A stretch of DNA of 32,823 bases from Myxococcales bacterium (GTDB taxonomy: Bacteria > Myxococcota_A > Polyangia > Nannocystales > Nannocystaceae): positions 1,405,828 to 1,438,650 of the forward strand of contig JACKDW010000001.1 of the NCBI GenBank assembly GCA_020633295.1, written 5' to 3'. The position numbers and the translations under genes were made by a program. Under the pieces are notes generated by a model. That model did no database searches. It saw nothing but the letters and a program-made list of their open reading frames with translations, and was not told where the DNA came from. The stretch's first letter is position 1. Every line of letters starts with the position of its first letter. Positions 1 through 29,728 of the stretch are shown here, piece after piece.

Positions 1-872
1 GGTTGAGCGCGCCGGTCGTCGTCGCGGCGATGACCGGCGGTACGGACGAGGCCGCGAAGATCAACCAGGACTTGGCGCGCGCCGCCGATGAGCTGGGGCT
101 CGGATTCGGGCTCGGCAGTCAGCGCGCGATGTTCGAACGCCCCGAGACCGCCTGGACGTTCAAGGTCCGTGAGCAGGCGCCCAACGTCCTGCTGCTCGGC
201 AACCTCGGGCTCGTGCAGGCCCGGCAGATGACCACCGGGCAGATCCAGGACCTGTGCGGAGAGACGGGCGCAGACGCGCTCTGCATCCACCTCAATCCGG
301 CCATGGAGATCGTCCAGCCCGGCGGCGATCGGGACTTCTCGGGCGGCGCCGACGTCCTGCGCCGTCTCGTCGAGGAGCTGACGATCCCGGTCGTCGCCAA
401 GGAGACCGGCTGCGGGCTGTCGCGCTCGGTTGGCGCGCTCATCCGCTCCTGCGGCGTCGAGCACGTCGACGTGAGCGGCGCGGGCGGAACGAGCTGGGTG
501 GCCGTGGAGGCTCACCGGGCGGACAACGACACCGCGCGGCACATCGCCGAGGAATTGTGGGACTGGGGCATCCCGACTGCGGCCTCGCTCCTGCAACTCG
601 AGGGTCTCGGCCTGCAGATCATCGCCACCGGCGGCCTGCGTACGGGCAGCGACGTGGCTCGCGCGGTCGCGCTCGGCGCGAGCGCGGGCGGGCTCGCCTC
701 ACCGGTGCTGAAGGCCCACCGCGCCGGCGGGTTTGAGGGCGCCCGCGCGTTCCTGGGCCGCGTCGTTCAGACTGTCCGCAGCATCATGCTGCTTACGGGG
801 TCGCGGACCATCGACGAGCTGCGCCAGAGCCCCCGGGTGATCGGACCGACGCTCGAGCGCTGGCGCGTGTGA
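1..872 (+). CDS. fni: Type 2 (FMN-dependent) isopentenyl-diphosphate delta-isomerase; 5' end lies outside the window (reading frame enters at base 3)
   Basis: The ORF is open from the window edge to the TGA at 870-872. It carries the TIM-barrel alpha-hydroxyacid-oxidase-like motifs VVAKETGCGLS and DVSGAGGTSWVAVE typical of IDI-2, and sits first in a mevalonate-pathway operon. Confidence 0.8.
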   Translation, partial: LSAPVVVAAMTGGTDEAAKINQDLARAADELGLGFGLGSQRAMFERPETAWTFKVREQAPNVLLLGNLGLVQARQMTTGQIQDLCGETGADALCIHLNPAMEIVQPGGDRDFSGGADVLRRLVEELTIPVVAKETGCGLSRSVGALIRSCGVEHVDVSGAGGTSWVAVEAHRADNDTARHIAEELWDWGIPTAASLLQLEGLGLQIIATGGLRTGSDVARAVALGASAGGLASPVLKAHRAGGFEGARAFLGRVVQTVRSIMLLTGSRTIDELRQSPRVIGPTLERWRV

Positions 873-898
873 GCCGCGACGTCAACCTCGGGAGCACC

Positions 899-1822
899 AT
901 GACCCCGCGACTTCACCCCCACGCCTCGGCGAGCGGCAAGGTCATCCTCGTCGGTGAGCACGCGGTCGTGTACGGGCAGCCTGCGCTCGCGGCCGGGCTC
1001 CCGGACGGCCTCGAGCTGTGGGCGTCGCCGCTGGACCGGCGCACCGACGCCACGCGCCTCGTGATCCCGGAGTGGCAGCTCGACCTCGTGCTGACGCCCG
1101 ACAACGACCACCCCGTCGCCCGCGCGACCCTCGAGGTCCTCGGGTTCTGCGACGGCCCGCTCACGGGCTGGCGCATCACCGGCACCTCGCGTCTGCCGAG
1201 CCGCGCCGGATGCGGATCGTCGGCGGCGCTCTCGGTCGCGCTCGCCCGTTTGGTGCTCGGTGACGAGGCCGCGCCGGCCGACATCATCGAGGCCTCCCTG
1301 GCCGGTGAGCGGGTGTTCCACGGGAACCCGTCCGGGATCGACAACCTCGTGGCGACCACGGGCGGGATCGTCCGCTTCGTGAAGGGCCAACCCGCAGCGG
1401 AAATTGCGGTGAAGGCGCCACTCCCCTTGCTCGTTGTCCCGACAGGCATCCCGCGCTCCACGGCCGCCCAGGTCACCAAGGTTCGGGAGCGCCTCGCGCG
1501 ACTCCCATCGATCGTGCGCCCGATCTTGGACGCGATCGGGCATGCGACGGACGACGCCATCTCTGCCATCAATTCCTGCAATTACAATATTTTGGGTGAG
1601 ATCTTCACAGTGACACATGAACTTCTCTCGAGCCTCGGCGTCTCGTGTCCGGCGCTTGATTCGCTCCAGGCCGACGCGCTCTCAGCGGGCGCGCTTGGCG
1701 CGAAGCTGACCGGTGCTGGGGGCGGTGGCTGCCTCCTCGTGCTCCCTCCTGCCGACCCGTCCCCTGTGATCGACGCGATGCGCGCGCGCGGCCTGGAGCC
1801 CCTCGCGGTGGAGGTTCGCTAG
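899..1822 (+). CDS. mvk: Mevalonate kinase (GHMP kinase family)
   Basis: N-terminal SGKVILVGEHAVVYG motif (GHMP motif 1), a P-loop-like SRAGCGSSAALSVALA, and a C-terminal KLTGAGGGGC. A GGGAG Shine-Dalgarno lies 5 nt upstream of ATG 899; an alternative GTG at 869 overlaps the fni stop. Confidence 0.8.
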   Translation: MTPRLHPHASASGKVILVGEHAVVYGQPALAAGLPDGLELWASPLDRRTDATRLVIPEWQLDLVLTPDNDHPVARATLEVLGFCDGPLTGWRITGTSRLPSRAGCGSSAALSVALARLVLGDEAAPADIIEASLAGERVFHGNPSGIDNLVATTGGIVRFVKGQPAAEIAVKAPLPLLVVPTGIPRSTAAQVTKVRERLARLPSIVRPILDAIGHATDDAISAINSCNYNILGEIFTVTHELLSSLGVSCPALDSLQADALSAGALGAKLTGAGGGGCLLVLPPADPSPVIDAMRARGLEPLAVEVR

Positions 1823-1824
1823 CC

Positions 1825-2874
1825 ATGGTCGGAGAGCTCAGACAGCACGCTCGAAGCGCGCGCGCGGTTGCGCACGCGAACATCGCGCTGGTCAAGTACT
1901 GGGGCAAGCGACCAGGTGCGGGCGAGGACCTCAACCTCCCGGCGGTCGGCTCGCTGTCCATGACGCTCGATCAGCTGCGCAGCGAGACCGAGATCGGGCC
2001 GGCGGACGCGGACGAGGATCGCTTTGAACTCGACGGTGAGCTCGTGACCGGCGCGGTCGCGGCCCGCTCGTTTCGTCACCTCGATCGGATCTGGCGCCAC
2101 TTCGGGGGCGAAGGGGCCACGCGCCCTGCCCTGCGCGTCCTCTCCCGCAACTTCGTCCCCACGGCCGCCGGCCTGGCCAGCTCGGCCTCGGGCTTCGCCG
2201 CCCTCACGCTCGCCGGGACGGCCGCGCTGACCACCGCGCTCGACGGGGCGTCACCGCGGGATCGGTTTGCCCCGCTCTCAGCGCTCGCGCGTCGTGGCTC
2301 TGGTTCGGCCGCGCGCTCCCTGTGGGGCGGGTTCGTGCGGCTCGATCGCGGTGAGCGCGACGACGGCTCGGACTGCCGCGCGCGCCCGCTGTTTGCTCGC
2401 GATCACTGGGACCTCGAGTTGCTGGTGGTCCACACCGCGCGCGGCAAGAAGTCGATCGGCTCGACCGAGGGCATGACCCGCAGCCGCGAGACCTCGCCCT
2501 ACTACGCCGCGTGGGTCCGCGAGTCCAAGGCTGATCTGGACGCGGCCGAGCAGGCGCTCGGACGTCGCGACCTGACCGCGCTCGGGGCCACGGTCGAGCA
2601 CAGCTGCTTCAAGATGCACGCCTGCATGCTGGCCACGCGCCCGCCGATCCTCTACTGGAACGGCACGACCCTCGAGGTCATCCGCGCGTTGTGGGACGCG
2701 CGGGCCGACGGACTCGAGGGCTACGCGACCAGCGACGCCGGCCCACACGTCAAGGTCCTCTGCCGCTCCGAGATCGCCGCCGCGCTCTCCGAGCGACTCG
2801 CGCGCGTCACCGGCGTGCTCGGGATCGATCGCGTGGGACCCGGGCCCGACGCCCACGTGGAGGTCCTCCCGTGA
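1825..2874 (+). CDS. mvaD: Diphosphomevalonate decarboxylase
   Basis: Signature NIALVKYWGKR near the N-terminus and an MVD-like GLASSASGFAAL P-loop. The start is 3 bp after the mvk stop. Confidence 0.85.
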   Translation: MVGELRQHARSARAVAHANIALVKYWGKRPGAGEDLNLPAVGSLSMTLDQLRSETEIGPADADEDRFELDGELVTGAVAARSFRHLDRIWRHFGGEGATRPALRVLSRNFVPTAAGLASSASGFAALTLAGTAALTTALDGASPRDRFAPLSALARRGSGSAARSLWGGFVRLDRGERDDGSDCRARPLFARDHWDLELLVVHTARGKKSIGSTEGMTRSRETSPYYAAWVRESKADLDAAEQALGRRDLTALGATVEHSCFKMHACMLATRPPILYWNGTTLEVIRALWDARADGLEGYATSDAGPHVKVLCRSEIAAALSERLARVTGVLGIDRVGPGPDAHVEVLP

Positions 2875-5153
2875 CGGACGTGTTCGTCTCGGCGCCCGGC
2901 AAGGCGTTCCTGATCGGCGAGTACGCGATCCTGCACGGGGCGCCGGCGATCGTCACAGCGGTCGACGTACGGGCCTTCGCCCAGGCCGCCAGCAGGTCGG
3001 GCGTCGAGACGCCGATCGTGCGCTGCACTCGAGCGGCGGTCGCCGACGCCCTCGAGCGTGACATCCCGTCCCTCGGACCGGCGCCGTCGGTCGATACGAG
3101 GGCGTTCGCGCCGGGCCGCCGCAAGCTCGGTCTCGGCTCGAGCGCTGCGGTGGCCGCCTGTGTGGCCGCATATCACCTTCGACGCGCCAAGCCGGACGCC
3201 CCCGCGGAGACGCTGCGGGACGAGATCTTCGCCCGCGCCTTCGACGGGCACCGCGCGGCCCAGGACGGGCGCGGCAGCGGAGCGGACGTCCTGGCGTCGG
3301 TCTACGGCGGCTCGCTGAGCGTCCGGCTCGCGGGTGGTCGGTGCGCGATCGAGTCGCGACCGCGCGCCGACTGGCTCACGATCGGCTTCGTCGACGCCGG
3401 CGCGCCCGCCAGCACCACGTCGTTTGTCCGGGCCATCGAGGCCGCGCGAGCCCGCGACGCGGACGCGATCGAGCAAGGGATCAGCCAGCTCGCGCAGGCC
3501 AGCGCGCGCTTCCACGCCGCGTTTCGCCCGTTCGCGCCCGGTGACGTCGCGGCGGCGCTGTACGCCGAGCTTCGGGCCGCCACCCTGCTGCACAACGACG
3601 GGCTTCGCCAGCTGCAGCGGGCCGCCGATGTCCCGATCATGACGGAGGCGATCGAGACGATCCTCGCCGTGGCGACGGAGTTCGGCCTGGCCGCCAAGCC
3701 TAGCGGCGCCGGCGGGGGCGACCTCGTCGTCGTCTTCGCCCACGAGCCAGCCGCCCTCGACCGCTTCGCCGTCGCGCTGCAACGCGAGCACGGGCTCGCG
3801 CTGCTTCGACACCTGCGACCGTCCGCGCCGGGGCTGCGCTTTGAGGCCCGCGAGCCGGCGACCTCCCGCCTCGCGGGCTTCTTCAAGCTCGACATCGCCG
3901 CGCGGCGGGCCGCGGTCGCCCACGCGGCTGGGATCGAGCCGACGAGCTTCTCCTCGGTCGACATCGGCGCGCTCGGGCTCGAGAGCGCCGACAACCTGAT
4001 CGAGAACGTCGTCGGCACCCTCGAGCTGCCCTTCGCCATCGCCACCAACTTCGTCGTCAACGGCCGCGACTTCCTCGTGCCCATGTGCGTCGAGGAGGCC
4101 TCCGTGGTGGCCGCGGCGTCGAACGCCGCGAAGATGATCCGCGCCGGCGGCGGGTTCGTGGCCCACGCCGATCCACCGTGGATGATCGCGCAGATCCAGC
4201 TCGCGCGCTGCCGTGCGGGGGGACTTCGCGCGGAGGAGGCCGCGGCTCGGATCACGCGCGAGCGCGACGCCCTGCTCGAGCTGGCCGATCGCGCCCATCC
4301 GCGTCTGCGCGCCCGCGGCGGCGGCTCCCGCGAGCTCGAGGTGCGCGTGCTCGCCGAGGACATGCTCGTCGTGCACGCGATCATCGACTGCCGCGACGCC
4401 ATGGGCGCCAACCTCATCAACACGATCGCCGAGGAGCTGGCGCCGGCGATCGAGCGCATCACCGGCTGGGCCGCAGGATTGCGGATCCTCAGTAACCTCG
4501 CCGACCGCCGCTGCTCGCACGTCGTCGCGCGTGTGCCCCCCTCGGCCCTCTGCGCCAACCTGCCGTCCAACGAGTGGACCGCCGACGCGGTGGTCGAGCG
4601 CGTGGTCGCGGCCTCGCGCTTCGCCGAGCTCGATCCCTACCGCGCGGCGACCCACAACAAGGGGATCATGAACGGGGTCGACGCGGTGATCCTCGCGACC
4701 GGCAACGACTGGCGCGCGATCGAGGCGGCGGCCCACGCCTACGCGGCCCAGGGCGGTCGCTACGCGCCGCTGGCGATCTGGCGAAAGGGCGCGGACGGCT
4801 GGCTCGAGGGTCGCATGTCGATGCCGACGGCCGTGGGCATGGTCGGCGGCGCGACCAAGGTCCACCCCGCCGCCCGCCTCGCGCTCGATCTGCTCGACTG
4901 TCGATCGAGCGCGGAGCTCGGCGAGGTGATCGTGGCCGCAGGGCTGGCCGCGAACCTCGCGGCCCTGCGCGCGCTGGCGACCGAGGGCATTCAACGCGGG
5001 CACATGTCCCTGCACGCGCGCTCGATCGCCCTCGGCGCCGGGGCCACGAGCGACGAGCTCGAGGCGCTCACCGAGCAGCTGATCGCGTCCGGCGAGATCA
5101 AGCACGAACGCGCGATCGAGCTACTTCGCGCCCTGCGGGCGACACGCCGCTGA
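2871..5153 (+). CDS. In-frame fusion of phosphomevalonate kinase (N-terminal ~330 aa) and class II HMG-CoA reductase (C-terminal ~430 aa)
   Basis: GTG 2871 overlaps the mvaD TGA (GTGA). The N-terminal half has GHMP/PMK motifs SAPGKAFLIGEYAILHG, KLGLGSSAAVAA and KPSGAGGGD. The C-terminal half matches class II HMGR throughout (ENVVGTLELPFAIATNFVVNGRDFLVPMCVEEASVVAAASNAAK, DAMGANLINT, DPYRAATHNKGIMNGVDAV, ATEGIQRGHMSLHAR). There is no stop or frame change at the junction near 3840-3860. Confidence 0.75.
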   Translation: MTDVFVSAPGKAFLIGEYAILHGAPAIVTAVDVRAFAQAASRSGVETPIVRCTRAAVADALERDIPSLGPAPSVDTRAFAPGRRKLGLGSSAAVAACVAAYHLRRAKPDAPAETLRDEIFARAFDGHRAAQDGRGSGADVLASVYGGSLSVRLAGGRCAIESRPRADWLTIGFVDAGAPASTTSFVRAIEAARARDADAIEQGISQLAQASARFHAAFRPFAPGDVAAALYAELRAATLLHNDGLRQLQRAADVPIMTEAIETILAVATEFGLAAKPSGAGGGDLVVVFAHEPAALDRFAVALQREHGLALLRHLRPSAPGLRFEAREPATSRLAGFFKLDIAARRAAVAHAAGIEPTSFSSVDIGALGLESADNLIENVVGTLELPFAIATNFVVNGRDFLVPMCVEEASVVAAASNAAKMIRAGGGFVAHADPPWMIAQIQLARCRAGGLRAEEAAARITRERDALLELADRAHPRLRARGGGSRELEVRVLAEDMLVVHAIIDCRDAMGANLINTIAEELAPAIERITGWAAGLRILSNLADRRCSHVVARVPPSALCANLPSNEWTADAVVERVVAASRFAELDPYRAATHNKGIMNGVDAVILATGNDWRAIEAAAHAYAAQGGRYAPLAIWRKGADGWLEGRMSMPTAVGMVGGATKVHPAARLALDLLDCRSSAELGEVIVAAGLAANLAALRALATEGIQRGHMSLHARSIALGAGATSDELEALTEQLIASGEIKHERAIELLRALRATRR

Positions 5154-5327: not shown

Positions 5328-6299
5328 ATGGTGAACGCCACAGAACCCCGCCTCTTCTGCGTCCCCGCGCCGACCGCTGACGAGCGCGACGAGGACTACA
5401 CGCCCCCGGACGGCGCCCCGCCCGGGCCGTGGTCGCTCGCCAGCGCCTATCGCTACTGCGAGCGCCTGGCCACGACCCACTACGAGAACTTCCCCGTCGC
5501 CTCGCGGTTCATGCCGGCCCACCTGCGCGGGAACGTCATGGCCATCTACGCGTTCGCGCGCACGGCCGACGACTTCGCCGACGAGCCGCGCTACGCCGAC
5601 CGCCGCGTCGAGGCGCTGAACCGGTGGGAGACCCTGCTCGAGGCCTGCTACCACCGCGACGTCGAGCACCCGGTGTTCCTCGCGCTGCGCGACACGGTGC
5701 GTCGCCACAACATCCCCATCGGCCCGCTCAAGGATCTCCTGACCGCGTTCCGCATGGACCTCACCAAGCACCGCTACAACACCTTCCAGGAGATCCGGCA
5801 CTACTGCCGCCACTCGGCCCACCCGGTCGGGCGCCTCGTGCTCTACGTCCACGGTCACCGCGCCCCCGATCTCCACCGCTTCAGCGACGAGATCTGCGCG
5901 GCCCTGCAGATCGCCAACTTCCTGCAGGACGTCTCCGTCGACCTGCCCCGCGGCCGCTGCTACCTGCCCGAGGAGGACCTCGTGCACTTCGGCGTCACGC
6001 GCGAGGACCTGCTCGCGCGTCGCCACACCCGCAACTTCCTCGACCTCATGGCCTTCTCGGTCGTGCGCGCGCGCGCCATGTTCCTGCGCGGTCGCCCGCT
6101 GATCCGCCAGGTCTCGCCCGGCCTGTCCATGGAGCTCGACACCATCTGGGGCGGCGGCATGGCGATCCTGCAGCGCATCGAGGACATGGGCTACAAGGTC
6201 CTCGACAGCCGGCCGACCCTCGAGAAGCGCGACATGGCCGGCATCGCGGTGCGCTCGCTGTTCCGCTTCGGGCGCCGCTTCATCCGCGGCGAGGTCTGA
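5328..6299 (+). CDS. hpnC: Squalene/phytoene synthase family enzyme, HpnC-like (hydroxysqualene synthase)
   Basis: YCERLATTHYENFPVASRFMPAHLRGNVMAIYAFARTADDFADE is an HpnC-type N-terminus. GGAG lies 8 nt upstream of the ATG, and the gene is first of an hpnC-hpnD-hpnE order. Confidence 0.7.
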   Translation: MVNATEPRLFCVPAPTADERDEDYTPPDGAPPGPWSLASAYRYCERLATTHYENFPVASRFMPAHLRGNVMAIYAFARTADDFADEPRYADRRVEALNRWETLLEACYHRDVEHPVFLALRDTVRRHNIPIGPLKDLLTAFRMDLTKHRYNTFQEIRHYCRHSAHPVGRLVLYVHGHRAPDLHRFSDEICAALQIANFLQDVSVDLPRGRCYLPEEDLVHFGVTREDLLARRHTRNFLDLMAFSVVRARAMFLRGRPLIRQVSPGLSMELDTIWGGGMAILQRIEDMGYKVLDSRPTLEKRDMAGIAVRSLFRFGRRFIRGEV

Positions 6300-6409
6300 G
6301 ACCAGGACCAGAACTGGACCAGGATCGGGACGAGCACGAAGGCGAAGGAGCGCGGAGGCTTGAGTACGGACGTGCGACGAGGGACGGAGGAGCGCGGGGG
6401 CGAACGCGC

Positions 6410-7357
<948 letters not shown>

Positions 7358-7432: not shown

Positions 7433-8764
7433 GTGCGACGCGTCGTGATCATCGGAGGCGGACTCGCCGGGCTGGCCTGCGCCGTGCGCCTGGCGGGCGC
7501 GGGCCAGCGCGTCACGGTGGTCGAGGCCACCAAGCGCGGCGGCGGGCGCTCGCGCTCGTTCCCCGACTCCTCCTTCGGCCGCGAGCTCGACAACGGGCAG
7601 CACCTGATGATGGGCTGCTACCGCGAGACGCTCGCGCTCCTGCGCACGCTGGGCACGCAGGACGGCGTGCGCTTCCAGCAGAACCTCGCCATCGAGATGG
7701 CGCGACCGGGCGGGCGGCGGATCCGGCTGCGCTGCCCCGCCCTGCCCGCGCCCATGCACCTCGTCAGCGGGCTGCTGACCATGCGCGGGCTCGGGGTCGT
7801 GCACCGGGCCTCGGCGCTGCGCGCCGGCCTCGTGCTCAGCGGCGAGGTCCGGCGCCCCGACGACAACGAGACCTGCGACGCCTGGCTCACGCGCATGGGC
7901 CAGACGACCGCGATCCGCAACGCGTTCTGGGAGCCGCTGATCTGGGCGGTGCTCAACGACGACCCGCTGATCTGCTCGGCCGCGATGTTCATGGCGGTGC
8001 TCGAGCGCGCGTTCATGGGCACGCGCGACGACTCGCGCCTCGGCGTGCCCTGCGTGCCCCTGAGCCAGCTCTACGTCGATCAGGCCGCCGACTACGTGCG
8101 CGCCCGGGGCGGCGCGCTGCGCTTCGGCGCGCCCGCGCGGTCCGTCGCGCGCGCGGGCGCGACGCAGCGCGTGCTGCTGAAGTCCGGCGAGGCGCTCGAC
8201 GCCGACGTGATCGTCGCCGCGGTCCCGCCGCGCGCGCTGCTCGAGCTGCTCGACGACGTCGCCGACTCACCTGTCTTTCAAGACATCAAAAAACTCAAGA
8301 CCGCGCCGATCGTCAACCTGTGGTGCGAGCTCGACCGCTCGCCGCTCGGCGGCGCCGAGATGATCGGCCTCGTCGGCAGCCCGCTGCACTGGCTGTTCGA
8401 CCGCAACGTCATCGAGCGCGCGCCCCCCCGCGCGCCGGTGCTGCTCAACTGCACGATCTCGGGCGCGCGCGGCTGCGTCGATGACTCGCCCGCGGCGCTG
8501 CGCCAGCTGCTGCAGGACGAGCTCGCGCGCTACTTCCCGGGCCCGCCGGTGACGATCCAGCGCTGCCGCGTGATCAAGGAGAAGCGCGCGACCATCTCGC
8601 ACGCCGCCGGGACCTACCAGTGGCGCCCCGAGACGCGCAGCCCGATCAAGGGGCTGTACCTCGCGGGCGACTGGGTGCGCACCGGGCTGCCCGCGACGAT
8701 CGAGTCTGCGGTCCAGAGCGGCCACCAGGCGGCGGCCGCGATCCTCGAGGACGCGACGCGCTGA
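7433..8764 (+). CDS. hpnE: Squalene-associated FAD-dependent desaturase / hydroxysqualene dehydroxylase (amine-oxidase-like)
   Basis: GTG start gives an N-terminus (V)RRVVIIGGGLAGLACAVRLAGAGQRVTVVEA, a Rossmann dinucleotide-binding motif. The C-terminus GLYLAGDWVRTGLPATIESAVQSG is the FAD-binding tail of the phytoene-desaturase/HpnE family. It follows hpnC and hpnD directly. Confidence 0.7.
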   Translation: MRRVVIIGGGLAGLACAVRLAGAGQRVTVVEATKRGGGRSRSFPDSSFGRELDNGQHLMMGCYRETLALLRTLGTQDGVRFQQNLAIEMARPGGRRIRLRCPALPAPMHLVSGLLTMRGLGVVHRASALRAGLVLSGEVRRPDDNETCDAWLTRMGQTTAIRNAFWEPLIWAVLNDDPLICSAAMFMAVLERAFMGTRDDSRLGVPCVPLSQLYVDQAADYVRARGGALRFGAPARSVARAGATQRVLLKSGEALDADVIVAAVPPRALLELLDDVADSPVFQDIKKLKTAPIVNLWCELDRSPLGGAEMIGLVGSPLHWLFDRNVIERAPPRAPVLLNCTISGARGCVDDSPAALRQLLQDELARYFPGPPVTIQRCRVIKEKRATISHAAGTYQWRPETRSPIKGLYLAGDWVRTGLPATIESAVQSGHQAAAAILEDATR

Positions 8765-8807
8765 CGGCTCACGCGAGCCGCCGCGCGCCGCTCGGGCGAC
8801 GCGGCGC
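8765..8807. terminator. Two adjacent GC-rich hairpins between the convergent hpnE and secreted-protein genes (possible bidirectional terminator)
   Basis: CGGCTC-acgc-GAGCCG (8765-8780) and GCGCCGC-tcgggcgac-GCGGCGC (8785-8807). The second overlaps the stop of the minus-strand gene. No U-tract follows. Confidence 0.35.
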
Positions 8808-10591
8808 TACTCGACGATACGCTGGCCCGGCTGCATCTGGATCTCGTCGGTCGTGCCGTCGTGGGTCGGCAGGTGCAGCGTGCCGAGGTTGACCGCGAAG
8901 GCGTTGAGCCAGTACGGGCCGATCGTGATGCGCTCGTTGAGCGGCCACGCGCTGATGTCGATGGTCCCCTTCACGCCCGGCGTGACCGTGACCTCCCAGT
9001 CGAAGCGCGGGTTGTTCAGCCGCCAGCCGTAGGGGTACGTGCCCTTGTCGGCCTCGTACGGGATGGTCGTCGTGAACTCGCGGGTCGTGTCCTTGCTCCA
9101 CGACAGCTCGTGCTTCACCTGCGTCGTCTTGCCCTTGGTGCTCTTGATCGGCTCGCCGTCGAGCACCGATCGGTAGTCGATCTTCGGCTTGCCGGTGCCG
9201 CCGAGCTTGAAGCCGATCTGCGCGCTGCCGGAGACGAGCCCGAGCAGGCTCAGCTGCGTCCGCGTGACGCTCGCGGGGATCCACCAGTCGATCCCGCAGT
9301 TGCTGCCGCAGCTCTCGAAGGGCGGGGTGAACTGCTTGCCGTGATCGAACTGCAGGTTGTTCGGGATCTTCTCGTCGAGCAGCTTGCCCCCGAGCACCCA
9401 GAGCTTGACGCGGACGTAGGCGCCCGCGGTCAGCACCAGCTCCTTGCCGTCGAACACCTCGCTCTGCTTGAGGCCGACGCTCGAGTAGTAGCTCGCGTCC
9501 GCGTTGAGGACGTGCGGGTCGACGACCGTGCTGTACTCGGTCGCGCCGTAGGTCCGGCCCTTGGTCTTGAGCGTGGTCGGCGAGGTGTCGACCTTGAACT
9601 CCACGGGCACGCGCAGGCCGAAGCCGTACCAGGCGTGCGCGCCGATCTCGAACTCGCCGATGCCGAAGTCCCACTCCTCCTCCCACTCGAAGGAATTGTC
9701 GATGGTGAAGCCCGTCAGGAACTTCGCCACGTAGCTGGCCGCGCCGGTCCCCTGCACCGCGGGCAGGAAGCGCGAGATCGTGGGCGGCAGCGCCGGGTTG
9801 AGCACCGCGGTCGCCAGCTTCGAGTAGTTGAGCACGCCGTCGACGACGGTCGGCACGCGCAGCGACGTCGCCGACGCGCGCGCGAGCGTGCTCGTCGGCA
9901 CCGAGACGCGCGTCGTGATCGTGACGTCCCCGAGGCCCTCGCCGATCGCGTCGAGCAGCGCCTGGTCGCCGCCTTGGTTCATGGCCGCGACGAGCGGGTG
10001 CGACGACGGCTTGCCCGCGAGCTCGGCCTTGTAGGCGTTGAGCGCCGCGCGCTGCGTCTTGGTCAGCTGCTTGACGAGCATGCGCGCGCCCGGGCGCACG
10101 CTCCGGGGCAGCGGGGCCACGCGCGACAGCCCGCCGCGCAGCGCGTCCGCGTCGGTGACGGTGAAGGTCGTCGACGACACGAGCACCGTCGCCTGCGGCG
10201 TCTGGATGACCTGCTCGTCCATCGACGGCGCGCCGAGCAGCGCGCCCTTCGGCAGCGCGGCGAGCTGCGTGTTGAGCTGGTGATGGTTCGCGAGCACCTC
10301 GTCGGCCAGCGCCTCGACCTTGACGTCGCCGCGCCCCGCGACCTTGACCGTGTCGCGCTTGCGCAGCGACAGCGCGCCCTGCTTGACCACCCCGTCCTGC
10401 GCGACGCGGCGCTGCACGAGCGTCGGGCTCGCGTCGACGCTCGCCGCCGACGCGACCTGCGGCGCGAGCTGGAGCGTCAGCAGCGTGACGCCGGCGAAGA
10501 CCAGAACACCGCCGCGACGGGCGCGGCGACGACGAGAACTCGAGATTCCACCCACGGTCGCAGGGTACTCGCATCCCCTCGCGGCGCGCAC
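8807..10591 (-). CDS. Large secreted hypothetical protein (594 aa) with a twin-arginine-like signal peptide; family not recognised
   Basis: GTG start. The N-terminus SSSRRRRARRGGVLVFAGVTLLTLQLAPQVASAAS has an RR n-region, a hydrophobic core and an AxA site. The mature part is compositionally ordinary, beta-rich and Ser/Thr/Gly/Trp/Tyr-rich. The overlapping ORF 8769..10574 is an Arg-rich shadow frame. Confidence 0.6.
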   Translation of the reverse strand: MRAARGCEYPATVGGISSSRRRRARRGGVLVFAGVTLLTLQLAPQVASAASVDASPTLVQRRVAQDGVVKQGALSLRKRDTVKVAGRGDVKVEALADEVLANHHQLNTQLAALPKGALLGAPSMDEQVIQTPQATVLVSSTTFTVTDADALRGGLSRVAPLPRSVRPGARMLVKQLTKTQRAALNAYKAELAGKPSSHPLVAAMNQGGDQALLDAIGEGLGDVTITTRVSVPTSTLARASATSLRVPTVVDGVLNYSKLATAVLNPALPPTISRFLPAVQGTGAASYVAKFLTGFTIDNSFEWEEEWDFGIGEFEIGAHAWYGFGLRVPVEFKVDTSPTTLKTKGRTYGATEYSTVVDPHVLNADASYYSSVGLKQSEVFDGKELVLTAGAYVRVKLWVLGGKLLDEKIPNNLQFDHGKQFTPPFESCGSNCGIDWWIPASVTRTQLSLLGLVSGSAQIGFKLGGTGKPKIDYRSVLDGEPIKSTKGKTTQVKHELSWSKDTTREFTTTIPYEADKGTYPYGWRLNNPRFDWEVTVTPGVKGTIDISAWPLNERITIGPYWLNAFAVNLGTLHLPTHDGTTDEIQMQPGQRIVE

Positions 10592-10722: not shown

Positions 10723-11769
10723 CTACCGCAGCGCCGGGAGCACCGCGACGAGCGCGACGCCGACGACGACCGCGAGGCCGATCAGCGCGACCGCGATGAA
10801 GACCGCGATCGTGCGCGGCGCGGGCCCCTCCGCCGGCGCGCGCCGGTCGCTCGCCTCGACGCCCACGGGCGTCGTCGCCGACGACGACCGCGTGAGCGCG
10901 GCCGCGGTCGCGGGCGCGAGCGAGTTCATCCCCAGCGCCTCGACGAGCACGCCGCCGACCTCCGGGTCGCGCTGGATCGCGGCCGCGGCCGCGAGCGCGG
11001 CGTCCGGATCGCCGAGGCGCTCGTGCGCGTGGATCCGGTACATCGCGAACATCAGGCGGTACTGGTGGGCCTCGGGCACGTCGCCGACGCGGGCCCCGAC
11101 GAGCTCGCGCACGCGCGCCGCGTCGCCCTCGCGGACCAGCACCGACGCGAGCCCGACGCGATAGGCGCTGTCGAGCACCACGTCCTCGGGCGCGGGGTCA
11201 CAGCGCTCGATCCAGGCGCGCGCCGCCGCGAGCGCCCCCAGGCTCGCGGCCGCGCCGGCGAGGTTGACGAACAGGAGGTGGCGAAAGCCCGGGTCGCGCA
11301 GCTCCTCGATCGCGCGCTCGAGCACCGCGCGGCGCTCGAGGTGCTTCCCGCCCATCCCGTAGCCCTGGTTCAGCATCGTCGCGCACCACCACAGCAGGCG
11401 CTGATGCTCGACGCGCGGCGCGGCGCGGACGAGCGCCGCGGCCTCGCGAAAGCGCCGCGCCAGCTGCTCCTGGACGTCCGCGAGCCCCGAGCGCGTGAGC
11501 GACTCGCAGCCGGGCGGCGGGCGCACCGTCGAGTATGGGTTGTCGGGGAGCGGGCGCCCGGCCTGCAGGCGCAGCGCGGCGAGCCGCGCCTCGCCCTCGA
11601 GCGTGTGAGCGAGCCGCGCGGGCTCGAGGCGTCGCCGCCCGATCAACATCTGCACGCCGCAGTACTCGCAGGTCACGCTGCCGCCGGTCTCCTCCACCCG
11701 CGCCGGCGCGCCGCAGCGCTCGCAGCTGAGCACGCGGAGCTCGACGTCAAACGTCCGCTGCATCGTCAC
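10723..11769 (-). CDS. Hypothetical protein with an N-terminal zinc ribbon (CxxC...CxxC), helical repeat region and a C-terminal transmembrane anchor
   Basis: N-terminus LSCERCGAPARVEETGGSVTCEYCGV. The C-terminus TIAVFIAVALIGLAVVVGVALVAVLPALR is a hydrophobic tail anchor. Start is GTG 11769 or ATG 11763. Confidence 0.55.
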   Translation of the reverse strand: MTMQRTFDVELRVLSCERCGAPARVEETGGSVTCEYCGVQMLIGRRRLEPARLAHTLEGEARLAALRLQAGRPLPDNPYSTVRPPPGCESLTRSGLADVQEQLARRFREAAALVRAAPRVEHQRLLWWCATMLNQGYGMGGKHLERRAVLERAIEELRDPGFRHLLFVNLAGAAASLGALAAARAWIERCDPAPEDVVLDSAYRVGLASVLVREGDAARVRELVGARVGDVPEAHQYRLMFAMYRIHAHERLGDPDAALAAAAAIQRDPEVGGVLVEALGMNSLAPATAAALTRSSSATTPVGVEASDRRAPAEGPAPRTIAVFIAVALIGLAVVVGVALVAVLPALR

Positions 11770-11889: not shown

Positions 11890-13335
11890 TCAGCCGACCG
11901 GCGGGAAGGTCACGAGCTTGAGCCCGGCGCCCGTCATGTCGGAGTAGGTGTAGGGCTGGTTGAGGCCCGTCACGGTCAGCTGGACCGCGTAGTTCTGCGG
12001 GCTGATCTTGAACGCCTGGTTCGCGCCCTGGTCTACGAGCCAGATGAAGCCGTCGACGTCGACGCTGACCCCGACCGGCGACACGCAGCCCGGGATCGCC
12101 ACGAGCGGCGCGACCGTCGACTTGCTCTTGACGTCGATGACCGCGAGCCCGCAGCCGCCGAGCAGCCCGGCGCCGACGTCGACGGCGTAGTAGGCCCGGT
12201 CCGCGTCCGAGACCATCACGCCGCGCATCGACTGGTTACCCGTGTTAATGAAGCTCCACTGCCCGCTCGCGGCGTCGAAGCTCGCCGCGACGCCGGCGCT
12301 CGCGATCCACGGGTTGCCGTACTGGTCGAGCGCCATGCCGTAGGTCCACATCTGCCCCGAGGGCGGCTGCGGGACCTCGACGCGCTCGACGTCGAGCGTG
12401 TCCCCGTCGATGCGGATGAGCGGCCCCTGCTGCCAACCGATGACCCAGAAGTCGAGGTTCTTGTCGACCGCGCCGCCGTACGGGCCGTAGCTGAGCTGGG
12501 CCAGCGCGGATGACCAGCCCGGCACCGCGACCTCGTCCTCGGCCTCGCCCGTGACGCTGCTCAGCCGGCGAAAGCGCCCCGTGTTGGCCGCGTAGTCGTA
12601 CCAGCCGATCCACACGCGCGGGTTCGCGTTGGCGCAGCCGTCGAGGCCGACCGCGCCCTCCCACGCGACCGGCCGCGGCCCGTGCTGATAATGGTCCGAG
12701 GGGATCGGGTGGTTCCACACCACGCACTCGTCCTGGAACCACGGGTACACGTCCCCGGCGCCGCTCGAGGTCTCGATCACGCCGTTGTTGTTGCGATCGA
12801 CGCAGTCGTCCGGGCGCGCCGCGATCTTCGTGATGCTGCCCGCCGACGGGCTGCCGACGATCCCGCCGCCGCGGTTGACGACGACCGCGTCGCCGTAGAG
12901 GCCGACGGAGGTCCGCGACGGCTCGGAGACCGCCTCGGGCCCCGTCCTGTAGCGCGCGAGCTCGACGCCCGACTTCGTGTCGATCTTCGACACGGTGCCC
13001 TCCGGCGAGTTCGCGATCCAGATGTTCGAAAAGTCAGGCGTGTTGCCGGTCGGCCCCCCGCCCCAGCAGTCGCCGCCGCCGCCGGGCAGCGCGTCGGTCT
13101 CGAAGCCGTCGCCCATGTCGAACTTCATGTCGGCGCCGCCCGAGTTGGTCAGGTCGATGCCCGAGCCGCTCGTCGAGGCCGTGACCCCGGGGCTCGAGAC
13201 GGCGCCGCTGTCGATGTCAGAGTCCGAGTCGCCTGACCCGCCCCCGCCGCAGCCCGCGCCCACGCAGGTGAAGAGCGTGCCCGAGAGGAGCACCGCGCAC
13301 CAAGGGACGACCACCACGAGACCACGACGACGCAT
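11890..13335 (-). CDS. Secreted lipoprotein, probable beta-propeller (Vgb/SMP-30-like repeat character), Gly/Asp-rich N-terminal linker
   Basis: ATG start. The signal MRRRGLVVVVPWCAVLLSGTLFTC is followed by a Cys and Gly/Ser/Asp linker. Repeated blades have the character NIWIANSPEGTVSKID, GFIWLVDQGANQAFKI and GNPWIASAG. Confidence 0.6.
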   Translation of the reverse strand: MRRRGLVVVVPWCAVLLSGTLFTCVGAGCGGGGSGDSDSDIDSGAVSSPGVTASTSGSGIDLTNSGGADMKFDMGDGFETDALPGGGGDCWGGGPTGNTPDFSNIWIANSPEGTVSKIDTKSGVELARYRTGPEAVSEPSRTSVGLYGDAVVVNRGGGIVGSPSAGSITKIAARPDDCVDRNNNGVIETSSGAGDVYPWFQDECVVWNHPIPSDHYQHGPRPVAWEGAVGLDGCANANPRVWIGWYDYAANTGRFRRLSSVTGEAEDEVAVPGWSSALAQLSYGPYGGAVDKNLDFWVIGWQQGPLIRIDGDTLDVERVEVPQPPSGQMWTYGMALDQYGNPWIASAGVAASFDAASGQWSFINTGNQSMRGVMVSDADRAYYAVDVGAGLLGGCGLAVIDVKSKSTVAPLVAIPGCVSPVGVSVDVDGFIWLVDQGANQAFKISPQNYAVQLTVTGLNQPYTYSDMTGAGLKLVTFPPVG

Positions 13336-13615: not shown

Positions 13616-16270
13616 TCAGGCGCCGCGCGCCGCCGCGTTGAGCCGCTCGACCAGCACGTCCGGCGAGACCGGCTTCGTCATCACGTCGGCGATGCCCAGC
13701 TCGCGCAGCGTCAGCATGTTCTCCGGGGTCACGAAGCCCGAGGTCGCGATCACGAGCGCCTCGGTCGCGCGCTCGCGCTTGATGACGCGGCACAGCTCGA
13801 CGCCCGACATCCCCGGCATCCGCAGGTCGACGACGATCGCGTCGAAGCGCTCGGCGTCGATCGCCGTGAGCGCGGCGGGCCCCGTCGACGCCGTGCGCAC
13901 GCTCCAGCCGAAGCGACGCAGGTAGCCCGAGAGCGCGACCAGGAGCACCTCCTCGTCGTCGACGAGCAGCACGCGCCCGCGCTCGACCGAAGGCCGCCCG
14001 CGCGCGCCGCTCGCCGCGCCGCGCCGCTGCACCGCGCGCTCCTCCGACTCGGCCGCCGGGATCGAGATGACGAAGCGCGCCCCGCCCCCGGGCGCGGGCT
14101 CGTGGCGCAGCGAGCCGTGGTGGTCGGCGACGATGCCGTAGGCGAGCGAGAGCCCGAGCCCGGTGCCGTCCCCGAGCTCCTTGGTCGTGAAGAAGGGATC
14201 GAAGATGCGCGCGGCGTGCTCTTCGGCGACGCCGGGGCCGTTGTCCTCGATCACGTACTCGACCCGCGCGCCGTCCTTGCGCGCGGCGATCAGGACGCGC
14301 TTGGCGTGCTCGCGCTCGTCGTCCTGGAGCGCGTGGAGGGCGTTGCTCAGGATGTTGAGGAAGACCTGCTGCAAGCGCACCCGATCGGCGCGCACGGGCG
14401 GCAGCGGGCCGATCTCGCGCACGACCTTGATGTCGGCGAGGCGGAACTGCTCGCTCAGCAGCATGAGCGCGCGGTCCAGCGACGCGCGCGCGTCGATCGT
14501 CTGCATCTCGAGCTCGCTGGTCCGCGCGAACCCGCGGATGTTGTCGACGATCCGCGCCATGCGCTCGATCTGCTCGATGATCAGGTCCTGCTCGCGCGTG
14601 AACGCGACGAGCGGCGCGCTCGGCATGGAGCGCATGGTCTCGACGAAGATCCGGATCGCGGTGAGCGGCTGGTTGAGCTCGTGCGCGACGCTGGCCCCCA
14701 GCTCGCCCATCGCCGCGAGCTTCCCGGCCTGGACCAGCTGCGCCTGCACCCGCTTCAGCTCGGTGATGTCCTGCGCGACCATGTAGAGCCGCTCGACCTG
14801 CCCGCCGCGCAGCTCGGGGATCACGTGCACCGTGAAGTGCATCATCCCGGACGGCATCGGCACGGCGACCTCGCTCGAGGCCAACCGCCCGGCGAGCCCC
14901 TCGTCGAACAGCGGGCGCACGAGCTGGACCAGCGACTCCCCGGCGATGTCGCCGAAGCGCGTGCCGATGACCTGCTCGCGCGTCTGCCCGCGCGCCTCGC
15001 AGTAGCGCTTGTTGACGAAGCGGTAGCGCAGCTCGCTGTCGAGCGCGGCGATCATGACCGGGATGTTGTCGGTGATCAGCAGCAGCTGCTCCTCGCGCGC
15101 GCGCGCGCGTCGCTCGGCCGCGGCCGCGCGCCGCTCGGCCCGCTTGATCGCGGTGACGTCCTGCATCACGATCCCGACCGAGCGCACCACGCCCTCGTCG
15201 ATGATCGGGTACAGCTTGATCAGCCAGTCGTACTCCTGCGCGCCGCCGCGCGGCGGGACCCCGGTGAACGCGAACTCGACCGGCTCGCCCGTCTCGACCA
15301 CCCGGGCGAAGACCGGCTCGACCGGGTCCGCGTGGCGGCCGAGCACCTCGCGGATCGTCCGACCGATGTGCGCATGGACCGGCGCGCCGTTGATCGAGGC
15401 GAGCTGCTCGTTGATCCGCTGGTAGCGCAGGTCGCTCCCGACGAGCGCGAGGCCGACCGGCGTGGTGCCGTAGAGCCGCTGCAGCTCGACGAGCTGGGCC
15501 CGCGCGACCGCCTCGCTCTCGCGCAGCGTCCGCTCGACCGCGCGGCGCTGCGCGACCTCGAGCTCGAGCGCCCGGTTCGCCTCCGTCAGCTGGCGCGTGC
15601 GCTCGGCGACCATCCGCTCGAGCTCCTCGCTCCGCTGCGCGCGCTCGCTCTCTAGGTTTCGCGACTCACGGTGCGCGTGGACGATCGTCGCGCACGTCGC
15701 GAGCAAGGGCTCGAGCGCGTCGACCAGCGACGCGTCGTAGCCCCCCGGCCGGTTCGCGATCCCGACCATCCCGATCATCACGCCGCGCCGGGAGAACGGG
15801 ACGCCGAAGAACGCGCGCAGCGGCGGGTGCCCGGTCGGCACCCCGGTGCTGCGAGGGTCGCGCGCGGGGTCGTTGGCGACGATCGGCTCGGCGCTCGTGA
15901 TCACGCGCCCGAACAGCGTGTCGAGATTTCTGAACTCGAGCCCGCTCTCGACGTGCTGCTCGTAGAACGCGCGCGACGCGGCGTCCCACGCGATGTTCGT
16001 GATCACGTGCGACTTCAGGTACGGAGTCCACACGCCGTCGCGCAGCTCGTGGTGAACCTCGCCGATGAAGCCGTACTCGCTCTCCGTGAGAGCGAGCAGG
16101 CTGTCGAGCAGCGCGCGAAACAGCCGCCTCGGCTCGACGTCGTCGATGTACCGCATCTGCGCGCGGTGAATCGCGGTCAAGAGGTCCCGTGTGAAGCTCT
16201 CCTGCACGTCCCCGGATCCTGCCGCTGACCAGCCGCGCCCGCGACCGCGTCGCTCCTCATGAGCATACAT
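13616..16270 (-). CDS. Cytoplasmic hybrid sensor histidine kinase: GAF, two PAS domains, HisKA, HATPase_c and a C-terminal receiver domain
   Basis: ATG at 16270 gives MYAHEERRG. GAF-like region GFIGEVHH...AFFGVPF, PAS segments, H-box SVAHELNQPL, N/G boxes IEDNGPGV and GTGLGLS, and receiver LLVDDEEV...DLRMPGMSG...K. No transmembrane segments. The upstream in-frame Cys/Arg-rich extension is judged non-coding. Confidence 0.8.
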   Translation of the reverse strand: MYAHEERRGRGRGWSAAGSGDVQESFTRDLLTAIHRAQMRYIDDVEPRRLFRALLDSLLALTESEYGFIGEVHHELRDGVWTPYLKSHVITNIAWDAASRAFYEQHVESGLEFRNLDTLFGRVITSAEPIVANDPARDPRSTGVPTGHPPLRAFFGVPFSRRGVMIGMVGIANRPGGYDASLVDALEPLLATCATIVHAHRESRNLESERAQRSEELERMVAERTRQLTEANRALELEVAQRRAVERTLRESEAVARAQLVELQRLYGTTPVGLALVGSDLRYQRINEQLASINGAPVHAHIGRTIREVLGRHADPVEPVFARVVETGEPVEFAFTGVPPRGGAQEYDWLIKLYPIIDEGVVRSVGIVMQDVTAIKRAERRAAAAERRARAREEQLLLITDNIPVMIAALDSELRYRFVNKRYCEARGQTREQVIGTRFGDIAGESLVQLVRPLFDEGLAGRLASSEVAVPMPSGMMHFTVHVIPELRGGQVERLYMVAQDITELKRVQAQLVQAGKLAAMGELGASVAHELNQPLTAIRIFVETMRSMPSAPLVAFTREQDLIIEQIERMARIVDNIRGFARTSELEMQTIDARASLDRALMLLSEQFRLADIKVVREIGPLPPVRADRVRLQQVFLNILSNALHALQDDEREHAKRVLIAARKDGARVEYVIEDNGPGVAEEHAARIFDPFFTTKELGDGTGLGLSLAYGIVADHHGSLRHEPAPGGGARFVISIPAAESEERAVQRRGAASGARGRPSVERGRVLLVDDEEVLLVALSGYLRRFGWSVRTASTGPAALTAIDAERFDAIVVDLRMPGMSGVELCRVIKRERATEALVIATSGFVTPENMLTLRELGIADVMTKPVSPDVLVERLNAAARGA

Positions 16271-16350
16271 GACAATTGAGGAATTACCGTCGCCGAGCCG
16301 CGGGTAATTGTACCTGCTGCATTTTTGGACAGGTTTGAATTTTTCCGCGT
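16265..16350. promoter_or_regulatory. AT-rich leader/promoter region of the hybrid kinase, containing a degenerate third copy of the TACATGAC motif and an AATTACCG/CGGGTAATT inverted repeat
   Basis: TACATGACAATTGAGGAATTA (16265-16285) matches motif copy 1 at 15 of 21 positions and overlaps the kinase start codon. The inverted repeat is 16282-16289 with 16301-16309. The stretch TTTTTGGACAGGTTTGAATTTTTCC (16322-16346) holds a TACAAT -10-like hexamer on the minus strand. Confidence 0.35.
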
Positions 16351-16379
16351 CGCGTCGCGCCCCACGGGCGCACGCGAGC

Positions 16380-17660
16380 TCACGCGCCCGCGAGCTCGCG
16401 GGCGCTCGGCAGCGGGCGCACGCGCCAGCCGAGCACGAAGCCGAGCACGAGCACGCCCGCCATGATGTACAGCGTCGTGTCATACACGTGCACACGGCTC
16501 GCGCCCTCGGGCAGCGCCGCGATCGCGAGCTCGCGGGTGCGCGTGATCAGGATCGGCCCCGCGATCCCGGCGGCGCTCCAGGCCAGCAGGATGACGCCGT
16601 GCACCGCGCCCACGTTGCGGGCGCCGAACAGGTCGGCGAGGAACGCCGGGATCGTCGCGAAGCCGCCGCCGTACATCGAGAAGATCGTGACGACCGCGAT
16701 CTGAAACAAGAGCCAGCTCCCGCTGGCGCCGAACTGCGGGATCAGCACGAACAGCAGCGCCTGCGCGGCGAAGAAGATCAGGAACACGGCGCGCCGGCCG
16801 ATGTAGTCGGAGATGGTCGCCCAGAAAAACCGGCCGCCCGCGTTAAACCCGCCGATCACCGAGAGCATCACCGCGGCCTGCTCGGGCGTGCGCCCGAACA
16901 CGTCCTGCATTAAAGGTGACCCTTGGGACAGAATTGAGATGCCGGCGCTGATGTTGATGAACAGCATGAACCACAGCAGCCAGAACTGGCGCGTGCGCAC
17001 GGCCTTCCCTAACGTGAGGTCCGGCTCGGCCCTGCTGCCCGCGCCGACCGCCGGGGGCGTCCACCCCTCCGGCGTCCACCCCTCCGGCGGCCGCCTGAGC
17101 GCGCGCGCGGCCAGCAGCATGACGACCGCGTAGACGCCCCCGAGCGTGTAGAGGGTCGCGGGCACGCCGGAGCTGTCGATGAGCCAGCGCATCACGGGCG
17201 CCGCGATCACGGCGCCGCCGCCGAAGCCGAGCACCGCCATGCCGGTCGCCATCCCGCGGCGGTCCGGGAACCACTTCACGAGCGCGCTGACGGGCGAGAT
17301 GTAGGCGAGCCCGAGGCCGACCCCGCCGATCACGCCGTAGCCGAGGTACAGCAGCCACAGCTGCCCGGTCCCGACCCCGAGCCCGCCGACCGCCATGCCG
17401 CCGCCGAACAGCAGCGCCGCGAGCGTCGCCGCGCGCTTTGGACCATGTCGCTCCAGCCAGGTTCCGCCGAACGCCGCGCTGATCCCGAGCAGCGCGATCG
17501 CGATCGAGAAGGTGTAGGCCGACACGCTCGTCCACGCCGGGTGAAGCGCGGCGATCGGCTTGTTGAACACGCTCCACGCGTAGACGGAGCCGACGCAGAG
17601 GTGGATGGCGACGGCCGCAGGCGGGATCAGCCAACGATTCGGCTTCGGCATCGCCGCCAT
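16380..17660 (-). CDS. MFS transporter, oxalate/formate antiporter (OFA)-like family
   Basis: Twelve predicted hydrophobic helices and MFS signature-like GxLxDRxGRR (ISDYIGRRAVFLI). Start taken as ATG 17660 (MAAMPKPNRWLIPP). The upstream in-frame Ser/Arg-rich extension to 18470 is rejected. Confidence 0.7.
   Translation of the reverse strand: MAAMPKPNRWLIPPAAVAIHLCVGSVYAWSVFNKPIAALHPAWTSVSAYTFSIAIALLGISAAFGGTWLERHGPKRAATLAALLFGGGMAVGGLGVGTGQLWLLYLGYGVIGGVGLGLAYISPVSALVKWFPDRRGMATGMAVLGFGGGAVIAAPVMRWLIDSSGVPATLYTLGGVYAVVMLLAARALRRPPEGWTPEGWTPPAVGAGSRAEPDLTLGKAVRTRQFWLLWFMLFINISAGISILSQGSPLMQDVFGRTPEQAAVMLSVIGGFNAGGRFFWATISDYIGRRAVFLIFFAAQALLFVLIPQFGASGSWLLFQIAVVTIFSMYGGGFATIPAFLADLFGARNVGAVHGVILLAWSAAGIAGPILITRTRELAIAALPEGASRVHVYDTTLYIMAGVLVLGFVLGWRVRPLPSARELAGA
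17046..17080. repeat. Perfect 15-bp tandem duplication (GGCGTCCACCCCTCC x2 plus a partial copy) inside the MFS gene
   Basis: Seen directly in the sequence. It encodes the duplicated pentapeptide PEGWTPEGWTP in the central loop and keeps the frame. Confidence 0.8.
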
Positions 17661-17685
17661 GATACGGCAGCGGCCGCGCGCCCGA

Positions 17686-28511: not shown

Positions 28512-28633
28512 TGGTTCTCCCTGCCCTGTCGTGAGGTTCAACGATCCGAAGCTGACCTCTGGTGCCAACTGTAACGAGCGATCACCCGGGCTGTAAAGCA
28601 GTTTCGGGGGGACCGGCCCCCAAGGCCTCTACC

Positions 28634-28681
28634 GTGAAGAAGGGACACGAAGCAGGGACACGAAGCAGGGACGAAGAACGG
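28634..28681. repeat. Tandem 13-bp direct repeats GGGACACGAAGCA x2 plus a degenerate third copy within a 375-bp divergent intergenic region
   Basis: Seen directly as GAAGAAGGGACACGAAGCAGGGACACGAAGCAGGGACGAAGAACGG. A GGGGGGACCGGCCCCC hairpin lies at 28603-28620. Confidence 0.6.
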
Positions 28682-29720: not shown

Positions 29721-29728
29721 CGGCGCGC

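Follow-up and report, generated by a model that had tools for sequence, protein, structure and literature searches.

In a member of the Myxococcales (family Nannocystaceae; assembly GCA_020633295.1, contig JACKDW010000001.1, positions 1,405,828 to 1,438,650), a phosphomevalonate kinase (PMK)-type kinase and a class II 3-hydroxy-3-methylglutaryl-CoA (HMG-CoA) reductase (HMGR) are encoded by a genuine single fused gene, not by two genes. The whole stretch of DNA analysed, hereafter the window, is 32,823 nt long, and the gene in question, pmk::hmgr, lies within an operon for the mevalonate pathway. The overall best explanation, in which we place considerable confidence, is that adjacent pmk and hmgr genes gave rise to one 760-residue polypeptide combining PMK and class II HMGR, and that this join is old and fixed. 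The gene and its parts are located as follows:

2871..5153, plus strand: pmk::hmgr fusion gene, 760 codons followed by a TGA stop (5151-5153), with a product of 79.6 kDa.
2859..2863, plus strand: Shine-Dalgarno-like GGAGG, separated by 7 nt from the GTG at which the fusion gene starts, as read from the sequence.
2871..3845, plus strand: PMK-type GHMP kinase domain (aa 1-325), recognised by Pfam, motifs, and fold match.
3831..3869, plus strand: junction G321-L-R-F-E-A-R-E-P-A-T-S-R333, leading from the C-terminal GLR of PMK through an 8-residue connector to the N-terminal SRL of HMGR, without stop or start codon.
3861..5150, plus strand: class II HMGR domain (aa 331-760), recognised by TIGR00532 and the alignment with 1qax.

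Translation of the window yields a single reading frame free of stops up to the TGA at 5151-5153. The GC content of third codon positions (GC3) stays at ~0.8-1.0 without interruption across the pmk/hmgr junction, and the other two forward frames are rich in stops. The original prediction, made from the sequence before the present analysis, of one continuous open reading frame (ORF) with neither stop nor frameshift at the junction is thus borne out, and the junction, which it had set near 3840-3860, is placed here slightly more widely at nt 3831-3869 (aa 321-333). Its figures for the size of the protein have to be revised: 820 aa had been given for the interval 2871-5153, which corresponds to 760 codons, and ~86 kDa for a product with a computed mass of 79.6 kDa. 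The 820-aa ORF, which runs from GTG 2691 (2691..5153) and overlaps mvaD (1825..2874) with its first 60 codons, is a mechanical extension into that gene. The true start is GTG 2871, because it overlaps the mvaD stop (GTGA) and is preceded by GGAGG 7 nt upstream, because orthologues in a 29-sequence alignment begin at the same position, and because the NCBI protein MCB9749466.1, which is 100% identical to the fusion product, is 760 aa long. Pfam assigns aa 84-147 of the product to GHMP_kinases_N, aa 236-305 to GHMP_kinases_C, and aa 342-716 to HMG-CoA_red.

The C-terminal half reads unambiguously as a complete class II HMGR. It scores 362.4 bits with TIGR00532 (cut-off 259.95) and 58.5 bits with the class I model TIGR00533 (cut-off 441.8), the PF00368 match spans positions 2-368 of the 368 in the model, and the half aligns end to end with the Pseudomonas mevalonii HMGR 1qax (residues 4-426 of 428, 405 bits). 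Counted along this alignment, E409, K597, D613, and H711 are the counterparts of the P. mevalonii catalytic Glu83, Lys267, Asp283, and His381, respectively, and are invariant in the 29 fusion proteins of alignment A1.

The N-terminal half is an ERG8-type GHMP kinase best read as PMK, an assignment that is well supported but indirect. It is matched by both PF00288 and PF08544, and all four GHMP kinase motifs, namely motif I (PGKxxLxGEY, aa 9-18), motif II (GLGSSAA, aa 87-93), GSGxD (aa 135-139), and motif III (KPSGAGGGD, aa 276-284), are invariant in alignments A1 and A2. In both halves the catalytic residues are kept across many divergent orthologues, conserved under long-term purifying selection, in agreement with the original description of two full-length and motif-complete domains. 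Most standalone relatives of the kinase half (36-43% identity, 305-340 aa) bear the JGI label PMK, and these relatives score 107-130 bits with the PMK model TIGR01220, still under its cut-off, versus 78-97 bits with the mevalonate kinase (MK) model. A single-sequence search of the PDB returned only weak matches, MKs first, without discriminating between MK and PMK, and was replaced for the question of kinase identity by a family profile and a fold search. With the family profile, 3k17 (Listeria Lin0012, ERG8-like) scores 174 bits, no MK more than 98 bits, and PMK 1k47 77 bits. The AlphaFold2 (AF2) model of the domain has a mean predicted local distance difference test (pLDDT) of 93.9 and a predicted template modelling score (pTM) of 0.92; its fold matches are GHMP kinases, with 3k17 the best in Foldseek (TM 0.82), PMK 1k47 at 0.73, and MKs at 0.61-0.73. 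The 3k17 structure has been used as a template for yeast Erg8 and resembles the Streptococcus pneumoniae PMK (PMC3060802); a published assay of Lin0012 was looked for in the literature and none was found. Furthermore, the operon has above-cut-off matches to MK (217 bits) and to diphosphomevalonate decarboxylase (226 bits), and PMK is the sole missing step beside them, which argues for the same identity. The phosphomevalonate decarboxylase model reaches just 116 bits on mvaD against a cut-off of 475; the enzyme is thus of the diphosphomevalonate type, and a PMK is therefore needed before that step in the pathway. No other GHMP kinase is found in the 32,823-nt window. Judged by these comparisons, the kinase half is a divergent PMK-like family that is not placed in TIGR01220.

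The fusion is old and fixed in a myxobacterial clade comprising Nannocystis, Enhygromyxa, and Plesiocystis, all of the Nannocystaceae, together with many uncultured relatives. The best 120 matches among 5.8 billion proteins, which stem from many independent metagenomes and from genomes of Nannocystis, Enhygromyxa, and Nannocystaceae, are all 700-780 aa long (median 759), share 55-73% identity with the window protein, and contain HMGR and GHMP domains; Plesiocystis pacifica SIR-1 (L001) has the same single fused ORF. The junction is gap-free in alignment A1, with G321, R323, P329, S332, and R333 invariant, and the spacing between the G[LIVM]R of PMK and the SR[L] of HMGR is exactly 8 residues in 108 of the 114 fusion proteins. 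The connector follows the consensus x[ED]xRxPx[NS], in which the Pro is invariant, and is devoid of Met in the 108 proteins with the standard 8-residue spacing. An identical junction is present in two assemblies, represented by MCB9749466.1 (1.44-Mb contig) and MCA9719747.1 (3.1-kb contig; residues 1-710 identical).

Orthologous operons, to which the original prediction had pointed for comparison, are fused in Nannocystaceae relatives and have separate pmk and hmgr genes in other Polyangia, with no uniform stop between the domains. One genome per species was scanned, followed by ORF and hidden Markov model analysis of the loci. A PMK-like gene lies directly upstream of hmgr, as a separate ORF, in many metagenome-assembled genomes (MAGs) of Polyangia, and the same separate pair occurs in MAGs labelled Acidobacteria, Calditrichaceae, Nevskia, and Rhodanobacteraceae. 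A cross-phylum PMK::HMGR fusion, which 'full-length' tblastn coverage had suggested for these four groups and for many Polyangia MAGs, was rejected, the ORF-level analysis resolving the pairs into adjacent separate genes. The unfused Polyangia (L019, L011, L039, L040, L068, and L002-L004) are 33-38% identical to the window protein in PMK and 51-57% in HMGR. They have the same gene order mvk-mvaD-pmk-hmgr, with flanking fni and hpnC/D in L019 and L011 and also hpnE in L019, and the same end motifs (GLRxE in PMK, SR[LI]PGFYKL at the start of HMGR), but the two enzymes are encoded by two ORFs, the pmk stop overlapping the hmgr ATG or preceding it by a few codons. In L019, the PMK ends in ...APGLRLETLS, its TGA stop overlapping (ATGA) the ATG of MTSSRIPGFYKL; at the corresponding position the window sequence reads ...APGLRFEAREPATSRLAGFFKL.

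The synteny fni-mvk-mvaD-pmk-hmgr-hpnC-hpnD(-hpnE) is common to the fused loci L001 (Plesiocystis) and L043 and the unfused L019 and L011. Myxococcus-type clusters (L072 of Myxococcus sp. 1LA, and L037) are ordered fni-hmgr-mvk-mvaD and lack a PMK-like gene before hmgr, and the adjacency permitting fusion is therefore specific to the Polyangia-type operon. In a neighbour-joining (NJ) tree of the HMGR domain, built without bootstrap, all Nannocystaceae-type fusions form one clade beside the unfused Polyangia. Given this shared synteny, and pmk stops that in the unfused Polyangia adjoin or run into the hmgr start, the comparative evidence makes the fusion a derived state fixed in one lineage, an old join of two coupled neighbour genes.

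When the PMK half was searched exhaustively against representatives clustered at 50% identity, 3,731 relatives were recovered. Among the top 150 of these, the sole full-length fusion cluster is P0102, accompanied by P0315 and fragments; a protein search with the N-terminal half alone did not re-list the full-length fusions, probably as a result of its choosing candidates by shared words, and was not used for counting them. P0315 (L081, 2415-4610) is a PMK::HMGR protein of 731 aa and 42% identity to the window protein, with a connector longer by ~11 residues and a shorter HMGR C-terminus, encoded in the context mvk-mvaD-fusion on a metagenomic contig without taxonomic assignment. Its position in the NJ tree, again without bootstrap, is outside the Nannocystaceae-type clade, which makes an independent second origin of PMK::HMGR probable.

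The reductase has also been joined to another kinase. HMGR::MK fusions, encoded by stop-free ORFs for proteins of 755-777 aa, are found in MAGs labelled Rhodanobacteraceae, Nevskia, and Calditrichaceae, at the following loci:

L013, 9030-11303: HMGR::MK fusion.
L023, 9027-11300: HMGR::MK fusion.
L078, 9033-11306: HMGR::MK fusion.
L008, 9114-11444: HMGR::MK fusion.
L005, 9060-11324: HMGR::MK fusion.

In these proteins, class II HMGR is N-terminal and MK is C-terminal (TIGR00549, 242 bits), and a separate PMK-like gene lies just upstream. Like the window fusion, they lie in a mevalonate operon and pair class II HMGR with a GHMP kinase from that pathway; however, the domains stand in the opposite order, MK catalyses the consecutive step, and the fusions are of independent origin and belong to other phyla.

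It is exceedingly improbable that the unbroken ORF reflects an artefact or a recent lesion, in which a sequencing or assembly error or a point mutation removed the mvaK2/mvaA stop in this genome only. Many relatives do have separate genes that differ little from the fused arrangement, and one mutation could mimic a fusion: pmk and hmgr are in the same frame in 10 of the 16 unfused pairs (p = 0.016 against the 1/3 expected, a value from which no conclusion is drawn, the loci being phylogenetically non-independent), and a single in-frame stop parts them in seven of those loci. Yet the best 120 matches, which come from many samples and four cultured genera, are fused without exception, the junction is constant in length, with conserved residues and no remnant Met, it recurs unchanged in two assemblies, and coding GC3 is unbroken across it. 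The lost stop that the original prediction had offered as the alternative to a real fusion is hence neither local nor recent; a stop and a start did disappear, but long ago, in the ancestor of the whole clade. We further consider it very unlikely that the gene is fused and the products are separate, with internal initiation or proteolysis at the connector releasing free PMK and free HMGR. Nothing speaks positively for such products, although cleavage is compatible with the sequence and AF2 confidence dips at the junction. In the scanned junction region, no in-frame ATG, GTG, or TTG occurs from nt 3700 to 4076, which upholds the earlier statement that an internal start is lacking there. The first in-frame starts past the junction, at 4077 and 4083, would remove ~75 HMGR residues including the ENVVG motif; translation can yield HMGR solely as part of the fusion. 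Moreover, the Met-free connector of the 108 proteins with standard spacing, being short, of fixed length, and Pro-containing, is unlike a protease-accessible linker.

The genuine fusion being preferred on these grounds, the nature of its kinase has to be weighed as well. The N-terminal GHMP domain might not be a PMK but a second MK, a kinase of another substrate, or a silent regulatory or scaffold domain on HMGR, with the PMK encoded elsewhere in the genome; we regard this as unlikely. The half remains below every NCBIfam cut-off, with 71 bits for the MK model TIGR00549 (cut-off 163) and, marginally less, 66.4 bits for the PMK model TIGR01220 (cut-off 165.7), MKs head the PDB matches of the single sequence, and a true MK is fused to HMGR in other phyla. 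On the other side, a bona fide MK two genes upstream and a diphosphomevalonate-type decarboxylase make a PMK a requirement for which the window holds no further GHMP kinase, the 36-43% identical relatives and the family profile favour PMK models and Lin0012, and a dead domain would hardly keep every one of its ATP and substrate motifs invariant. Apart from the sub-threshold family scores, several points weigh against a bifunctional PMK-HMGR of single origin: a number of MKs outrank the S. pneumoniae PMK in the profile search as well as in the fold search, and the PMK call draws on pathway logic and closer relatives; bifunctionality is deduced solely from conserved residues; the NJ tree that unites the fusions has no bootstrap; and the AF2 model of the full protein (pLDDT 81, a moderate 60-78 at the junction; pTM 0.64), being that of a monomer, is no guide to the interface or the relative orientation of the domains. 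Its pLDDT is also low from aa 373 to aa 384, a segment containing the conserved ENVVG motif.

For a fused PMK and HMGR we propose the following working. The pmk stop and the hmgr start were lost in the operon mvk-mvaD-pmk-hmgr, in which the genes are adjacent and tightly coupled, and the last PMK strand (GLRxE) now leads through a rigid-looking, Pro-containing connector of 8 residues into the first residues of HMGR (SRLxGF). From the conserved residues we infer that both domains are active and that one ~80-kDa chain carries both activities, the kinase half converting mevalonate-5-phosphate and ATP to mevalonate-5-diphosphate and the reductase half HMG-CoA and 2 NAD(P)H to mevalonate. In class II HMGRs the active sites are shared between the subunits of an obligate dimer, as seen in the P. 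mevalonii structures, and the fusion protein would for this reason be a dimer or larger, with one kinase per reductase subunit. The gain would consist in a 1:1 stoichiometry and the co-localisation of pathway steps 3 and 5, and the fusion may dock MK, the enzyme of the intervening step. A further objection has to be met here, in that steps 3 and 5 are non-consecutive and direct channelling would therefore bring no obvious gain.

Joined steps of this kind have precedents, MvaE and IspDF being the nearest in architecture. MvaE of Enterococcus faecalis and related Gram-positive cocci likewise bears another mevalonate enzyme on the N-terminus of a class II HMGR, and in both proteins the combined activities are non-consecutive (steps 1 and 3 in MvaE, steps 5 and 3 in the window fusion). 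The partner in MvaE is acetoacetyl-CoA thiolase and its lineage is Bacillota, whereas the partner in the window fusion is a GHMP kinase; MvaE has been characterised biochemically, and the window PMK::HMGR is known from sequence. The structure 7m1z, deposited as acetyl-CoA C-acetyltransferase, HMGR chain, matches the C-terminal half of the window protein with 279 bits and is probably the reductase part of a thiolase-HMGR protein. In the methylerythritol phosphate (MEP) pathway, an association of IspDF with the intervening kinase IspE has been proposed, and nothing comparable is known for MK with the window fusion. IspDF (for example of Campylobacter jejuni and Mesorhizobium loti), like the window fusion, joins steps three and five and skips the intervening kinase, and it can serve as a model of fusions working as scaffolds and not as direct channels, although the pathway, folds, and chemistry are unrelated. 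It is described as a fusion of non-consecutive steps in isoprenoid precursor synthesis (PMC13001223).

By analogy, the connector may fix a PMK on each subunit of an HMGR dimer or hexamer, forming a platform that recruits MK and takes HMG-CoA to mevalonate-5-diphosphate in one complex, or the product or substrate of PMK may allosterically tune HMGR. Part of the same proposal is that fusions of class II HMGR with GHMP kinases arose at least three times, as the Nannocystaceae-type PMK::HMGR, the P0315-type PMK::HMGR, and the HMGR::MK of Gammaproteobacteria and Calditrichota. Taken as a whole, we put this forward tentatively and think it rather doubtful; if true, the recurrence of HMGR/kinase fusions would suggest that tethering the reductase to the kinases is of general selective advantage.

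The genes surrounding the fusion in the window, up to the end of the squalene genes, are:

3..872, plus strand: fni, type 2 isopentenyl-diphosphate isomerase (TIGR02151, 315 bits > 281), its 5' end cut by the window edge and its stop overlapping the mvk start.
869..1822, plus strand: mvk, MK (TIGR00549, 217 bits > 163; Pfam GHMP_N and GHMP_C).
1825..2874, plus strand: mvaD, diphosphomevalonate decarboxylase (TIGR01240, 226 bits > 171).
5328..6299, plus strand: hpnC, squalene synthase of the HpnC type (TIGR03464, 320 bits > 250), 174 nt downstream of the fusion gene.
6440..7357, plus strand: hpnD-like presqualene diphosphate synthase (best match TIGR03465, 253 bits, just under 278.6), start codon uncertain.
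7433..8764, plus strand: hpnE, hydroxysqualene dehydroxylase (TIGR03467, 420 bits > 283).

The genes hpnC-hpnD-hpnE make up the three-enzyme bacterial route to squalene. They follow the fusion gene on the same strand, and to this extent the original description of a squalene-dedicated operon stands; 'dedicated' goes too far, given the 174-nt gap, the supply of isopentenyl diphosphate by mevalonate genes for all isoprenoids, and the same synteny in unfused relatives. A promoter and terminator scan of the 174-nt gap found nothing, such a scan being uninformative for a myxobacterium of 72% GC. A linkage of the mevalonate cluster with hopanoid/squalene genes in Nannocystineae has been noted earlier (PMC9304148). 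The mechanical 642-aa ORF at 5429..7357 was discarded as a chimera in which an out-of-frame read through hpnC is joined to the real hpnD.

Downstream of hpnE, the strand changes. Three consecutive ORFs with a strong coding signal (GC3 of 0.96) and no Pfam match are followed by a signalling cluster on the minus strand (13616-20982):

8807-10591, minus strand: ORF of 594 aa.
10723-11769, minus strand: ORF of 348 aa.
11890-13335, minus strand: ORF of 481 aa.
13616-16495, minus strand: hybrid histidine kinase (GAF-PAS-HisKA-HATPase-receiver), 959 aa.
18669-19523, minus strand: PP2C phosphatase.
19558-20982, minus strand: zinc-ribbon protein with two FHA stretches.

Further on, composition shifts at 28001-31000, with a GC of 0.62 at 28-29 kb against ~0.72 elsewhere and an AT skew of +0.42 at 29-30 kb and +0.35 at 30-31 kb. 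Scanning the whole window for tRNAs and for Rfam families gave no match.

Each half of the fusion belongs to a well-known family, and current understanding is not overturned by their union. No description of a PMK::HMGR fusion was found in the literature and supplements searched, subscription-only papers lying outside the scope. In NCBI, the protein is named only "HMG-CoA reductase, degradative", which hides the kinase half. A 2023 study of sterols in Nannocystis reported that obvious homologues of PMK or HMGR were not identified in N. pusilla Na p20 (PMC10152446); the Nannocystis proteins P0082 and P0106 are fused PMK::HMGR named as HMGR only, and the reported gap may be an issue of annotation or search. 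Indeed, with the fusion named only as HMGR, Nannocystaceae and their relatives seem to lack the PMK step, and gene-by-gene surveys of pathway presence and absence could misclassify these sterol- and hopanoid-related producers. The fusion could also be tried as a compact part in mevalonate-pathway engineering. For the biology of the family, it adds to MvaE and IspDF a third natural case of joined non-consecutive steps in isoprenoid precursor synthesis, and it is a clean, datable instance of translationally coupled neighbours becoming fused, with unfused intermediates surviving in sister lineages.

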